Positions 1 through 6,000 of a DNA stretch of 30,668 bases are shown one piece after another. Source of the DNA: a virus (taxonomy: Duplodnaviria; Heunggongvirae; Uroviricota; Caudoviricetes); the IMG/VR virus record IMGVR_UViG_3300045988_129107, one strand, 5' to 3'. Position 1 is the stretch's first letter. The number at the start of each line of letters is the position of its first letter. The position numbers were made by a program.

Positions 1-3000
1 TAAAAAATAGCATCCAACCACAGCACGCTCTTGCTTACGACGTGCTGCGGTTTTATTGATAATTCCGGATTAGATCGTCAATGGAGACATTATTGCCGGA
101 GATAATGGTGGATTCAGCATCCAGAGTAATCCCGGCGACACCGTATCAAAAGGACGGCTCAGATCATTAACACATTTTGTTAACTTGAAATCTGTAACAC
201 TTTCTCCATTCCCCAAACATTGACCATTTCCAATCGACTTGATTTGCACAGCTCCAGTTTCACTGGTTATAAATGTAAATAATGCATTGCGATTGCTTTC
301 AGTGCATTGTTTAGCCACTGCTAATTGCCCATTTAGAATTGCAAGGCATTCATTACCATCAGGGTTTTTTATCTGAACATGCCCCCCCGGTGCCGATATC
401 AAATCCAAATCATTAGTCTTTACTTCTGATATAACCCAATTATTTACATTGAAGTCACGACCTACAGGGTTTCTGAGTATCCCACCAGTAAGAACGTTTC
501 TAATATTAACCAACACAGGTCTGGGTTCAGGATCTCCAGAAGCATTGTTGCCAGCAAACTGAGTGAGAAGCCCTCGTTGATTTACCGCATCAGAAGTACA
601 TCCCGTCAGCAATAAAACCAAAATCGTAATAATTATTCTCATCTTCTAGCTCCTCTTCCGGGAATGAAGCCAACCGGAAAGTGATCAGAGGCAATTTGTC
701 CTCTTAACAACCCAAATAACAGCGAAGCCCTCAACAGGGGAAGCACAAAACTCACTGAGTTTCCAACTACAGCATAATCAAGCACTCCACCACTGGCCTG
801 CGTTGGATCTGGTGGTGCAATAATATTCACGTGATTACGGATTCCCGGCTCAAGTGTTGAAAATAACATAGCAGGTGAACGGTTGAAATCTCCTGCAATC
901 ATCCAGTTAGCGGCCTGTCTTATAGGATCTGTTTGTCTGTTGAAAAACTCAAAAACACTGTTAACAATTGCTCCAGAATCTATACCTCGGTTTGCCAATG
1001 CATGAGTTGAGAAGAAAACATCATTACCTATTCTTATTCCAATGATCGGACGCGATGCCACTGTTGGAGGTGATAATACAATCACCTCATCAGCTCTTCT
1101 GTTAGATACTATCGCTAAATTTACTCTATTAGAAAGAGCATCAGTTCGCGAAAAATAAATAAAAAGCTGCTGTGGACGGCTATTCGTTCCAGTATTCCAG
1201 ATATACTCATTCATTGGGATACCTGGTGTACGAAATTCACGTTCCGTTAGTGTAGCTGAAGATGGTATTGAACCAGCTTCCTGAACCATCAGGATATCAA
1301 CAGCACCACTTCCCGTGACAAGTTGTCGAACATGTGTGTTCCATTTATTTTCTGTCGGTGCATTTGAGCCCTGCAAATTCCAGGTTGCAACTTTAAAGTC
1401 GCTTAAATCTGCAAAAGAAATACCCGGCAAAATCATTAACAGGAATAATAATTTTTTCATACTCCCTCCATTCCATCAGGTTTGTCATGAGGTGGAATTG
1501 GCAATGGTCTGAATGGTCTTAATTCTGGTTTAATCAGATTTGGTTTTGCCGCTCTGACAGGTGGACTTATTGCCCATAGCATTTCTTGCGTTTCTTCTTT
1601 TGCACCAGGACACTTCTCAAGGGTGATTGTAAAAGCAAACGGTGACAGTATAGTTCTGCTTAAATAGTCTGCTCTTATACACGTCTGCAAGGCGCTACTT
1701 CTTATAAGCACATTACCATTAGTAGAAGGCAGTAACTGAAACTCCTGAGATAACGAATTATCATCACAGGTATTATGTATCACCCCGTTTTTAAAGGCCT
1801 CCATGCAAGTCCCCTGGGCAACATTAACAAATTTCACTGTACCGGCATCTTTACCATCCACAACCTTCCAGTTCCGATTCTCTCCAAAACTTACTGAATC
1901 AAACGGAGTATATCCCCAAAGCCAGTTACGGACAGGTCTGGCCCAAACAGTAAGCATCGCTCCCCCTGTGCTCATTATTGAAACATCAGGAAAGTCAGTA
2001 CTGTTGCTCCCAAATGTTGGAGATGTGCCATTTGAAGCAACAGCGACACCTTGCCCTGGAATTCCGACTAATTCTACATTCTTTCCCGGTGGCGAAGGTG
2101 AATCACCGATCCCATCCGAGCAACCAGTAATTATAAGTGTGCACAAAAATGCAATTAGTTTTTTATCCACTATATTTCCTCCTCTGCACCACCTCTTTTT
2201 TATAAAAAAACAGAAACAACAAAGCAACAAAAATATTACTGGTAAGATTAATGAGAAAATGTGAAAGCAGCACAACAAACAAGTTTATTATAACATTCGT
2301 TATTGTTTTTCAGGTTACAAACAGCGAGCTCATATATAATTCTTTATATTCCAAAACACTATGCAACATGACCATAACGTCTGCGGTTCAGTGGAGTTTG
2401 CTCAAACATATTCGCCAGTCTGTTTCATTACGTAATACACCTGTTTAGGTGTATGCATAAGACCAGTCAGGTATAAATAACTATATTGTTTTGCATAAGA
2501 AGTTGGTTGCATAATCACCAGTTAATATAAACTCCATTATTTCTCCACATTTTCATGTTAGAAGTTGCAAAGAGAAACATGATGTTTCTCTTTGAGATAA
2601 TTAATCATTCCTGTTGCCCACCTCACTGGTGGGCTTTTTTATGTAAAACCAGCCCCTGCCATGTTCCCCTGACATGATGACGTTAGCGATTAACCAACAG
2701 CCAGATCAGCAGACACGCCACCACCGGCACAGCAAAATCCATCATGCTTGCCATATCCCATGCACGTGGATCAAAACCGCCCCACCACGGCATGTTAATC
2801 CGCTTGCCATGCCCGAACATTCCAATCCAGCGATATTCTGCCTGGGTATGTTCACGCGCAATGAAGAACGTACAACCGGCTATCGCTCCGTAAGCCCAGT
2901 TCCCGGTAAAAAGACCAACCAGTACCTGCGCAGCCACAGCACAAAGCGCGTGAAGGAAAGGTGTTATATCCATTACTCCTCCTTTATCCAATATCGCTTC

Positions 3001-6000
3001 GGGAAGTTAATAACAACTTTAATTCTGACTCAAGTTCATCAACTCTTTCAGTCAGCTTCTGGATATGGTGAATCAGTGGAACAACCAGACGTTCGTACAT
3101 TACGCCTTCGGCAACAAGGCCATTGCTGGAAATAGCTTCAGGAGCATCATCTTCGTTAGCTGGTCGCCAGTGTACAAACTGAGGGGCAATTTCTCCTACT
3201 TCCTCGGCAATCAATCCGTAGAATCCCCAATCGCGCCTGTCATTTTCGCATTGCGACCTGTACCACACAGGGCGCATCTTGAAAATGAGATCGGCGTGCT
3301 CTGAATCTATCGTCTCTACTGAATGTTTATAGCGGATAGACGATGTTGACCGCAGCACAGACGAAATTGCGGGGTCAGGATTAAGATAAAGGTTTGCCGC
3401 AGCTGTAGTCGTGGCCAAATTCCATAAATAAAACGCTTCACGACCTGTCAGTGGATAAAAATCTCCGCCATAACGACCGCTTTCCAGATCGTTCACTTCC
3501 ACTTTGTTTTTCAGCTTATTATCCACTTCAGTTTTCGTGTATCTGGTACTGATATCCTGCTTTGCACTGTCCATATCAGTCTGAAGCGTTGATACTTTTC
3601 CGCTAATTGATGAAATATCTTCCTTAGCTTTACTGACATCTCCCTTTAGCTTGGTGATATCTCCTGGAATTACTGTCGATGTAGCCATTTTTCTGCCTCA
3701 CATCCAGCCACGAAGTTGATGCTCAACAACAACCGCGTATTTATCGAATATTGACGATTTTTTTGCATCATTAATGATGCGCACGTTTACAAAATATCCA
3801 TCTTCCTTAACACATATCGGTTCGCCATCTTCAGTCAGCTCTCCGGTTTCTTTGTACACGTTACCTATCACGTCAATAAGAATATCATCCTGCATCGACT
3901 CGTCATCATAATAGCCAGCACTCTCCATAAAGGCCGAAAAGTCGGCCCTGTCGGCAAATTTGAGTGTTAAATCTTTCATTAGATTGACTCCCCCACCTGA
4001 GCATCAGTCAATGCCTTGTGCCATATTCTGAAATTCCTGACATGACCAAATAAATGACGTAACCCGGCTGTAGTCTGGCCTCCAATACGGATAATTGCGG
4101 TGTTCTGAATATAGAACCATGTGGTTTTTGTTTCGCTGGATATACGCCCGTTACTTACTGAGCACGTAGACTGATCTGACTTTACACGCATCCCCATAAC
4201 CATTTTTTCAAGCGATGCGTTTTCGTTTACCCGTCTGTTAGCTCCTCCAATATCGCAATAAGGAAATCCGTCGTAATCTGTTGAACGACCGAAGCCAAGA
4301 ATAATAGCCGCTCCGGTTTGATGACCGCCGGTGTCAAAAACACGCGGCGCTGCATTTGGCGTTTTATACCAGTTCTTATGTACCTCACAAAGAACCGTAA
4401 AAGGAAGATTATAAAGATTATTCTTAATGGGAACTGTAACTATATCGCTTGCGCGGGTCGCCGCCGTCGTTCCTGATATAATAAAAGATGATACACAAGG
4501 CCCATTTTCTACTTGTGGGGTGGCCAGATAAATATAGTCACCAGATACGGTTGCCCCGCCCTGCTTAGGAGAATACTGTATCTGAGAACCTATTTTTAAC
4601 TCCCCATCAATTGCCTGAATTGTTGCCTCTGCAAAAATCCATCCGGTAGCTTCGTCCTTTCTGACTCTCGCAGTAATCCTTGAGGCAGCACCGCCTGTCA
4701 TAGTAATTTCAAGCGTTTGTGTATCAATATACGCATCACCAAGAAAAGTTGTTGCGCTACCGTCATATTTATCAAACCGGATACGCAACCTTACCTGCAG
4801 TTCTGTTTTAAAACGACATGAGGTTGTCACGTATTTATTATCGCCTGAGACATCAACTGACTTTGTTGCAGCAATTGATGCCATATTAATGGCTGAGGTT
4901 TGCCCAATCAGAGAATCGTTACAGACAAACTTTCCATAGGTAAAACCAAAACTATCCGTCCCGGTTTCGGGAACATCCATATTTGACGATCGCCCCCAAC
5001 TGGCAGGGTTTTCCGAATTGAGCATGTAGTTTGTTCTTTGCCCCTCAATAAGCAGGCCATCACGTTCAAATCGTGGCTCGTCAATGGCAGCCTCTGTCAG
5101 CACACCAGATTTATTAATATAGGTTGCTTTCGATGCGCGTTTAAACTTTACAACCTTATCGCCAGGCATCGTTATTTCATCATCACCAATAACAATCTTT
5201 TTATATGACGGCGAAAAGCCCGTAATCATATCCAGTGAATCGTTAAACGGTATCCACACATCGGGAAGCGGCTGCAAAACTTGTTTATACGGCTCCGCAG
5301 CCTGGCTTGCATACTCTCTGGCTGCGTCTTCACTTGCTTTTGCAGCCGTCTGGCTTGCAGCGGATGCTTTCGCCGAGTTAGCCGCCGCAGTCTCGCTCGC
5401 CTTTGCGTTGGTTTCACTGGTTTTTGCAGCTTTTTGACTGTTGGCTGATGCAGTGGCAGAAGAAGCCGCCGCACTTGCAGAACCAGCTGCGGCACTCTCG
5501 CTTTGGGCCGCTGCATCCTGACTGTTTTTCGCCGCAGTTTCGCTGGCTTTAGCATTCGTTTCGCTGGTCTTCGCTGCCGTCTGGCTGGACTTTGCGTTAG
5601 TTTCGCTCGTCTTCGCTGCTTTCTGGCTGTTAGCCGCAGCAGTTGCTGATCCAGCTGCTGAAGTCGCAGAACCGGCTGCCGCGCTCTCGCTTTCGGCTGC
5701 TGCATTCTGGCTATTTTTCGCCGCAGTTTCACTGGCTTTAGCATTCGTTTCGCTGGTTTTCGCTGCCGTCTGGCTGGACTTTGCGTTGGTTTCGCTCGTC
5801 TTTGCTGCTGTCTCGCTATTTTTCGCGTTGGTTTCTGATTTTTTAGCTGCTGTCGCGGAATTTGCCGATGCAGTCTGCGAGGCCGCTGCCGCCTGTGCGC
5901 TGTTAGCTGCATTCGTTTCTGAGGTTTTCGCCGCGTTCTTCGATGATGCCGCTGCAGTTTCGGATTTCTTTGCCGCCGCTGCGCTCTGAGAGGCGGCTTC

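Follow-up and report, generated by a model that had tools for sequence, protein, structure and literature searches.

A probable multi-part side tail fibre cassette followed by an accessory membrane protein gene in a toxin-converting lambdoid prophage

The lateral tail fibres of siphoviruses such as those compared here consist of one polypeptide or of two or more (Maffei et al., PMC8594841). In the T5-like phage IrisVonRoten (Bas32), gp24 is a distal fibre with an intramolecular chaperone domain that is attached to the proximal fibre gp22, the C-terminus of which has been modelled as a protruding galectin-like domain, and one sentence of the same paper gives Gp23 as the connection partner (Humolli et al. 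2025, PMC11990801). Branched fibres in which each subunit carries its own S74 domain have been inferred for DT57C, where the N-terminal ~45 aa of LtfB resemble gp15 of phiEco32, which pairs with gp14 in a branched fibre; this likeness is the basis of the inferred attachment of LtfB to LtfA (Golomidova et al., PMC4728585). Here we compare with these systems the side tail fibre gene stf and the three small genes that follow it, encoding proteins of 93, 234 and 96 aa, in a 30,668-nucleotide stretch of DNA of a caudovirus (IMG/VR record IMGVR_UViG_3300045988_129107), the whole of which is referred to below as the window.

All four genes lie on the minus strand and are densely packed, and their coordinates are collected in Table 1. 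We put at roughly 0.6 the probability that they make up a modular cassette for a side tail fibre of several subunits, in which the gene for the 96-aa membrane protein is a hitch-hiking accessory. This reading is grounded in gene structure, domain identity, an invariant residue dyad, synteny across phage families and module swapping, all of which were observed here.

IrisVonRoten has the same gene order as the window, and the C-terminal motif of its gp22 is that of the window Stf. Its gp23 has 92 aa and is 37% identical to the window 93-aa protein, and its gp24 starts with MVTKTVIPTDITKLK, compared with MATSTVIPGDITKLK at the start of the window 234-aa protein, and ends in an intramolecular chaperone domain. 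However, gp24 is a T-shaped protein of 574 aa with two receptor-binding domains (Gp12-like and T5-like), whereas the window protein has 234 aa with only a coil and a tip of ~50 aa. IrisVonRoten is also virulent and carries no membrane protein gene after the cassette, unlike the window prophage.

KarlJaspers (Bas06) has homologues of all three fibre-related genes, matching at 45% for the C-terminal half of Stf, 54% for the small protein and ~60% for the S74 protein. In this phage and other Drexlerviridae, ltf is followed by genes for a 92-aa protein and for an S74 protein of 225–231 aa annotated as "putative lateral tail fiber chaperone" or "chaperone of endosialidase", in the order and with the lengths seen in the window; the S74 homologues of virulent T1-like phages span 221–231 aa. 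The Drexlerviridae carriers differ from the window in being virulent, in having the locus between replication genes and in lacking the membrane protein gene. JakobBernoulli, a sister of KarlJaspers, has a single 741-aa fibre that includes the chaperone domain where KarlJaspers has three genes.

The L-shaped fibres of DT57C/DT571/2 (PMC4728585, PMC10713586) likewise consist of two fibre proteins, LtfA and LtfB, the second held on the first. The proximal LtfA, however, has an S74 domain, whereas the window Stf has none and ends in a lectin-like region, and no ~92-aa gene has been described for DT57C/DT571/2, whereas the window has the 93-aa gene.

The order of a Stf-like fibre, a ~92-aa gene and an S74 protein recurs in the lambdoid phages IdasGreatGrand and 2G7b, in the Nonagvirus members ESCO3 and JenP2, in about 50 Drexlerviridae including KarlJaspers, and in the T5-like IrisVonRoten, and the proximal fibres of this recurring cassette all end in ...GGQTxxGxRHLFGHxRNFRIWHKxLTDxQ. 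With the distal fibre of IrisVonRoten, the split fibres of siphoviruses and the branched fibres of DT57C on record, the multi-part fibre architecture is already known, and the window holds a short member of it.

Table 1. Coordinates of the fibre cassette, its flanking and junction signals and the parts of the 234-aa protein in the window.
Feature	Position	Strand	Remarks
Terminator-like hairpin	6371–6392	minus	between lom and stf; upstream edge of the fibre cassette
stf (Stf, 793 aa)	3979–6360	minus	
Acidic 93-aa protein gene (phrog_1361)	3698–3979	minus	small partner that always accompanies this Stf type
234-aa protein gene	2984–3688	minus	coiled coil and C-terminal Peptidase_S74
N-terminal docking peptide (putative) MATSTVIPGDITKLKGDVSK	3629–3688	minus	codons 1–20 of the 234-aa gene; conserved; also the recombination junction of the distal module
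Predicted coiled-coil shaft	3494–3628	minus	residues 21–65; helix in the AlphaFold2 model, weak profile matches
Pre-cleavage tip segment	3344–3493	minus	residues 66–115; would stay at the end of the mature protein
Peptidase_S74 / intramolecular chaperone domain	2987–3343	minus	residues 116–234; predicted cleavage at Ser116 (codon 3341–3343); Lys121 (codon 3326–3328)
AGGAGG ribosome-binding site and 4-nt spacer	2974–2983	minus	between the 234-aa stop and the 96-aa ATG; TAAAGGAGGAGTAATG
96-aa membrane protein gene (phrog_1443)	2683–2973	minus	open reading frame, PHROG and RefSeq

The sequence-only reading had proposed three tightly coupled genes behind stf, and their coordinates and packing were found as proposed. 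The stop codon of stf (TAA, 3981–3979) and the start codon of the 93-aa gene (ATG, 3979–3977) have one base in common (TAATG), as that reading had noted, and 9 bases separate the TGA of the 93-aa gene from the ATG of the 234-aa gene (junction sequence TGAGGCAGAAAAATG). At the third junction, where it had placed a ribosome-binding site and start codon immediately behind the S74 gene, the TAA of the 234-aa gene (2986–2984) is indeed followed by AGGAGG, 4 bases and the ATG at 2973. Because this ribosome-binding site and ATG lie directly after the TAA, the membrane protein is taken to have 96 aa, and the RefSeq coding sequence call gives the same 96 aa. A 102-aa open reading frame starting with TTG, which came from the open reading frame listing, was rejected as the membrane protein gene in view of the signals at 2973 and the RefSeq call.

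The ratios of nonsynonymous to synonymous substitution rates (dN/dS) among prophage alleles were 0.36, 0.18 and 0.12 for the genes of the 93-aa, 234-aa and 96-aa proteins, respectively, which marks all three as real genes under purifying selection. A hairpin like that at the upstream edge of the cassette, between lom and stf, is also annotated in phage 21.

Stf itself consists of an N-terminal tail-attachment domain, a shaft of repeats rich in Ala, Ser and Thr, a domain like that of the head spike fibre of a gene transfer agent (GTA), and a ConA/LamG-like end. Pfam phage_tail_N matches residues 5–134 with 222 bits, and NCBIfam GTA_spike_fiber ("phage head spike fiber domain") matches residues 437–637. 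In the Protein Data Bank, entry 6tb9 (Rcc01080, the head spike fibre of the Rhodobacter capsulatus GTA) matches residues ~406–652 (window ~4430–5170) with an E-value of 4e-7; the tail side fibre and the head spike therefore have a domain in common. The shaft (window ~5300–6050) is made of these repeats (…AAKTSETNAKSSQTAAKTSETNAKASETAAKNSQ…), and where it departs from its relatives, repeat units have been cleanly inserted or deleted; against IdasGreatGrand, for instance, there is a gap at ~5600–5700.

The C-terminal motif of Stf (...RIGGQTxxGxRHLFGHxRNFRIWHKxLTDxQ) is common to IrisVonRoten gp22, KarlJaspers, JenP2, phage 21, rolling and CarlMeissner, and in BLASTP comparisons with related fibres the homology runs through the end of the protein. 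The LamG-like lectin domain that had been proposed for this end is thus upheld in part: the motif is shared with the galectin-like gp22, but Laminin_G_3 scores 17–19 bits against a cut-off of 27.6, over only the last 50 profile positions. No S74 domain was found in Stf itself with Pfam.

The S74 domain was found in the 234-aa protein, where the sequence-only reading had placed it. Pfam PF13884 (Peptidase_S74) scores 27.4 bits against a gathering score of 22, with residues 116–172 on profile positions 1–57/58. Neither Ser116 nor Lys121 varies in alignments of 36 and 40 homologues, and their spacing S-x4-K is that of the cleavage dyad of intramolecular chaperone domains. The C-terminal region including S116 and K121 also aligns with the C-terminus of DT57C LtfA (8hqz_d).

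The AlphaFold2 (AF2) monomer model of the 234-aa protein has a mean pLDDT (predicted local distance difference test) of 71.5. It predicts a helix at residues 9–60 (pLDDT 82–88 over 11–40) and a confident region at residues 121–230 (block means of 77–95), with a C-terminal helix at 198–232. Compared with the Protein Data Bank by Foldseek, the model matches first the intramolecular chaperone domain of MyRF (7dc3, E-value 2.6e-5) and then those of GA-1 (3gud) and K1F (3gw6). The profile, the fold and the Ser-x4-Lys dyad are thus those of the intramolecular chaperone domains of K1F endosialidase, GA-1 gp12, T5 pb1 and MyRF, although the client part of the window protein, at 115 aa, is unusually short by comparison. 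Because the Pfam score lies above the cut-off, the dyad is invariant, and the LtfA alignment, the modelled fold and the Foldseek matches agree, the S74 assignment of the C-terminal half is sound.

The domain is preceded by a predicted coiled coil and a segment of 50 aa. The coil has weak similarity to the Lpp zipper and to the gp26 needle of P22, and the whole protein aligns to positions 1147–1383 of the 1385 of phrog_3299, that is, to the C-terminal tip of long one-piece fibres. Of the separate S74 protein described from sequence, the coiled coil and the domain therefore stand, but "standalone" is not an apt term, as the domain is C-terminal in a fibre-like polypeptide as usual.

The N-terminal motif MxTxTxIPxDIxxLK is common to the 345/346/351-aa alleles, to the 225-aa protein of KarlJaspers, to JenP2 gp25 and to IrisVonRoten gp24; carriers of this peptide with 345–351 aa, named "tail fiber" or "endosialidase chaperone", occur in 2G7b, CH4811 and ESCO3. 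Between the short S74 proteins of lambdoid and T1-like (Drexlerviridae) phages, identity is 80% in the N-terminal peptide (residues 1–20), 17–26% in the coiled coil (21–65), 60–66% in the pre-cleavage tip (66–115) and 57–62% in the chaperone domain (116–234). As read from these alignments, the regional pattern is that of a docking peptide, a spacer, a tip and the chaperone belonging to it.

Comparison of related loci shows that this piece is exchanged. The window Stf is 97% identical to that of 2G7b, whereas their S74 partners (345 aa in 2G7b) are 29% identical beyond the N-terminal peptide. At the DNA level, identity to 2G7b and CH4811 is 89–100% over stf and the 93-aa gene, 40–64% over ~3700–3000 and 83–98% over the membrane protein gene, and the homology to 2G7b ends at ~3666, within codons 1–20 of the 234-aa gene.

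The allele that follows the 93-aa gene in 80 IMG/VR prophage loci is of either ~234 aa or 346 aa. In phage 21 and in EC9682-type prophages with the type I cytolethal distending toxin (CDT-I), stf, the 92-aa gene and the membrane protein gene are present and the S74 gene is cleanly absent; Dhillonvirus rolling also has a Stf homologue of the same C-terminal type and no S74 gene. Judging from these alignments, the S74 gene is an optional, exchangeable module that is short, long or absent and appears to recombine at its conserved N-terminus.

From these data we infer trimerisation, self-cleavage and physical attachment of the distal subunit, as well as the roles of the 93-aa and 96-aa proteins, as follows. 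Stf would be the proximal fibre with its own lectin-like C-terminal domain, and the 93-aa protein would be made in step with it through the stop/start overlap and act as a partner of that domain. The 234-aa protein would be a subunit of a short distal fibre rather than a free chaperone: three chains would trimerise, the S74 chaperone would fold the coil and the ~50-aa tip that precede it and would then cleave itself off at Ser116 using Lys121, and the mature trimer of ~115-aa chains would dock on Stf, or on Stf together with the 93-aa protein, through the N-terminal MATSTVIPxDIxxLK. The second short fibre that the sequence-only reading had offered as an alternative fits the putative docking peptide, the coiled coil and the ~50-aa tip before S74. 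The 96-aa protein would stand outside the fibre as the product of a moron-type gene and would most likely alter the envelope or block the entry of incoming phages in the lysogen or infected cell.

The 93-aa protein is acidic, as had been predicted from its sequence, with an isoelectric point of 4.31 and 20 acidic residues against 10 basic ones. It belongs to phrog_1361, annotated as of unknown function; no match was found in Pfam, NCBIfam or PADLOC, and nothing significant among Protein Data Bank sequences (best E-value 0.12). Its AF2 model (pLDDT 85.4) is a small alpha/beta fold. No sequence or fold relationship was found to known Tfa families (lambda Tfa / Mu U / P2 G type).

In six phage groups (lambdoid, Drexlerviridae, Dhillonvirus, Nonagvirus, T5-like and rV5-like), members of this family lie next to a Stf that has the C-terminal motif of the window Stf, and they do so whether the distal gene is there or not. 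As with Tfa, the gene lies directly downstream of the fibre gene and its presence tracks the type of fibre C-terminus. By position and by this dependence, the 93-aa protein thus behaves like a dedicated fibre partner.

Whether the partner joins the two fibres has to be weighed at this point. As a structural joint between the distal S74 fibre and Stf, it would resemble the hinge proteins of the T4 long fibre; in lambdoid, T1-like, Nonagvirus and T5-like phages, its gene is placed precisely between those of the two fibres, the RefSeq name of the IrisVonRoten homologue is "tail fiber protein", and the sentence on Gp23 in PMC11990801 points the same way. However, homologues are equally present in phages without a distal gene (phage 21, EC9682, rolling, CarlMeissner), and no structural similarity to known fibre joints was found. 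Among 1.84 billion representatives the family comprises 49 representative clusters, all standalone and of ~85–110 aa, with no fusions to either fibre, the two long hits matching through short stretches only. A joint is a possible role, but the odds are against it, and a part in assembly or an association with the tip is favoured.

The 96-aa protein presents a different picture. The three transmembrane segments proposed from sequence are plausible, with strong hydropathic segments at ~5–25 and 74–95 and a weaker one at ~26–40, but the annotators of phage 21 gave its membrane protein two transmembrane segments and a signal-like one. The protein is a member of phrog_1443, the function of which is annotated as unknown. 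Searches of Pfam, NCBIfam and PADLOC gave no match, nor any described exclusion, conversion or defence family, and there was none among Protein Data Bank sequences.

The family, a large one of 570 clusters at E ≤ 0.001, is strongly conserved: the proteins of E. coli and of Aeromonas or Comamonas are 56–64% identical, and of the 28 columns that are invariant among Escherichia, Salmonella, Leclercia, Citrobacter, Aeromonas and Comamonas, most fall in the loop AREHTQAEYRWI...NMPWWGGFD. No covariation with the fibre alleles was observed.

In lambdoid phages the gene comes after stf, and in a Comamonas prophage after gpJ; the P22-like Gally has it between the tailspike gene and int, and the P2-like phiHAP-1 between tfa and the sheath gene. 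The virulent phages with the other cassette genes lack it. Lysogenic-conversion or exclusion genes are found after receptor-binding genes in several temperate phages, namely gtrABC in P22, oac in Sf6, Z/fun in P2 and cor in phi80/N15; the tailspike–int slot of P22-like phages carries O-antigen modification genes, and the P2 slot carries Z/fun. These genes share the type of genomic slot with the 96-aa gene but have no sequence relationship to it. The sequence-only reading, which had noted that lambdoid phages often carry superinfection-exclusion genes at this place, is borne out as to the slot by lambdoids, Gally and phiHAP-1: the position is of the moron type, in a typical lysogenic-conversion slot in three phage morphotypes, which supports the position and not the function.

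In the long-type cassettes (345/346-aa alleles), a terminator-like hairpin precedes the 96-aa gene: GGGGCCGAGCGCCCC, then GTTTTATT, lies between the fibre and membrane protein genes (L002 ~1950–1985; L007 ~3480–3515). The short-type cassette of the window has the direct stop–ribosome-binding site–start coupling where the long-type cassettes have this hairpin.

A 56%-identical homologue of the 96-aa protein was found in the Aeromonas rivipollensis chromosome (L093, 6001–6309) between the genes of a pirin and a RIO1 kinase, with no phage genes nearby. Since this copy lies outside a prophage, the 96-aa family is not confined to prophages.

This copy also bears on the possibility, which we regard as tentative, that the protein is a small envelope-modifying enzyme or a metal-binding membrane protein with a general cellular role, and neither a classical superinfection-exclusion plug nor a part of the lysis system. 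Many of the 28 invariant columns are polar (D2, H8, R40, E41, T43, Q44, E46, Y47, R48, D68 and D79), and their invariance spans Enterobacteriaceae, Aeromonas and Comamonas; the lack of covariation with fibre alleles and the Gally copy in a slot that holds O-antigen modification genes in P22-like phages also favour such a role. On the other side, none of Pfam, NCBIfam and PADLOC gave a match, and 96 aa is very small for an enzyme.

A broader reading, also doubtful at present, takes the two small proteins together. The 93-aa protein would represent a new family of fibre-tip partners for lectin-tipped side fibres, and the 96-aa protein, with its enzyme-like invariant polar loop AREHTQAEYRWI...MPWWGGFD, a widespread undescribed class of phage conversion genes. 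Temperate sipho-, podo- and myoviruses of Proteobacteria would place this gene right behind their receptor-binding genes, and its product might act on a conserved envelope component or entry step, whatever the specificity of the fibre.

Several observations weigh against the cassette with its hitch-hiking gene. Upstream of the 96-aa gene, the minus strand showed no sigma-70-like promoter, and given the Aeromonas copy its function may not be phage-specific. The 93-aa protein is without informative structural relatives. Residues 58–112 of the 234-aa protein are not resolved in the AF2 monomer model, the low confidence there being attributed to a trimeric segment that is expected to fold only as a trimer. 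The mature product would have only ~115 aa, and its tip is conserved and not hypervariable; this is not usual in a tip that binds a receptor and would also fit a mere cap. The BASEL label of the KarlJaspers and PeterMerian homologues is "putative lateral tail fiber chaperone". The literature yielded no virion proteomics for this family, only a phage with a one-piece fibre, and no paper matched a full-text search with the conserved peptide motifs, accession numbers and PHROG identifiers.

The conserved tip leads to the reading of the 234-aa allele as a minimal cap or plug at the distal-fibre docking site, a stub without a receptor-binding domain that ends or stabilises the tip of Stf. In the window protein, the central domain of ~110 residues found in the 346-aa alleles is indeed missing, as are the two domains of gp24 (Gp12-like and T5-like); only the conserved 50-aa segment stands in their place, and this segment is 60–100% conserved over very different phages and does not vary with the host. 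Yet a conserved tip could equally bind a conserved ligand, and the gene is under purifying selection (dN/dS 0.18), with thousands of intact prophage copies, and is kept in compact virulent T1-like genomes as well. Nor does the structure demand a cap, given that some phages have no distal gene at all, and we regard this reading as unlikely.

Less likely still is that the 234-aa protein is a trans-acting chaperone that folds the lectin-tipped Stf or another fibre and is not a virion component, as the sequence-only reading had suggested. The short non-chaperone part (115 aa), the lack of an S74 domain in Stf and the BASEL label are in its favour. However, phage 21, rolling and EC9682-type prophages have the same type of Stf C-terminus and no S74 gene, and nearly identical Stf proteins (97%) are paired with partners of 29% identity; a gene that is optional and exchangeable is not expected for a protein needed for Stf folding. 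The conserved N-terminal peptide and the coiled coil are also those of bona fide fibre proteins. Finally, the solved S74 domains (K1F endosialidase, GA-1 gp12 and T5 pb1) act on the polypeptide that contains them, and the fold matches are consistent with this.

That the 234-aa open reading frame is what recombination has left of a longer fibre gene, now in decay, as its alignment to the C-terminal end of the 1385-position fibre profile might suggest, is very improbable and was rejected in view of its conservation (dN/dS 0.18; a 90%-identity cluster of 2,928 sequences), its own start codon and ribosome-binding site, its conserved N-terminal peptide and the similar size of its virulent T1-like homologues (221–231 aa).

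The window as a whole is a lambdoid prophage with the type IV cytolethal distending toxin (CDT-IV), 99.9% identical to the copy in E. coli APEC O1. The genes cdtA, cdtB and cdtC lie on the minus strand at 70–2278, directly downstream of the fibre cassette, and the prophage is a toxin-converting lambdoid phage. In the gap of ~400 nt between the membrane protein gene and cdtA, positions 2616–2634 form an intrinsic-terminator-like hairpin on the plus strand (GCCCACC-TCACT-GGTGGGC followed by T6), which is without a T tract on the sense (minus) strand.

The stf gene of APEC O1 is split up as a pseudogene, in fragments, and its small terminase gene is interrupted by a stop codon; in the window both open reading frames are intact (3979–6360 and 25713–26807). 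The window copy may therefore be an inducible, functional prophage of another strain. Two markers of the Rac prophage, trkG and ydaY, are found in the region 1484000–1510000 of APEC O1, equivalent to window ~6400–30668, alongside a major capsid protein of P22 type and tail genes of lambda type, and the prophage is a mosaic lambdoid element.

Taken together, the cassette belongs to a common type of multi-part side fibre that has been described before, so that the finding is real but mostly ordinary, and what looked like a "standalone S74 chaperone" is more aptly seen as a short distal part of such a fibre, open to exchange. This reading bears on the labels "tail fiber domain-containing protein", carried by the APEC O1 copy that was checked (within the cluster of 2,928 sequences), and "lateral tail fiber chaperone", used in T1-like phages. 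The borders of the module, namely the conserved N-terminal peptide and the 93-aa gene, could guide the swapping of fibres in lambdoid, T1-like and T5-like phages.

The comparison also flags two conserved proteins beside receptor-binding genes, those of 93 and 96 aa. The membrane protein is the better lead for new biology: as a protein of a toxin-converting prophage, it might prove to have a new function in exclusion or in envelope conversion.

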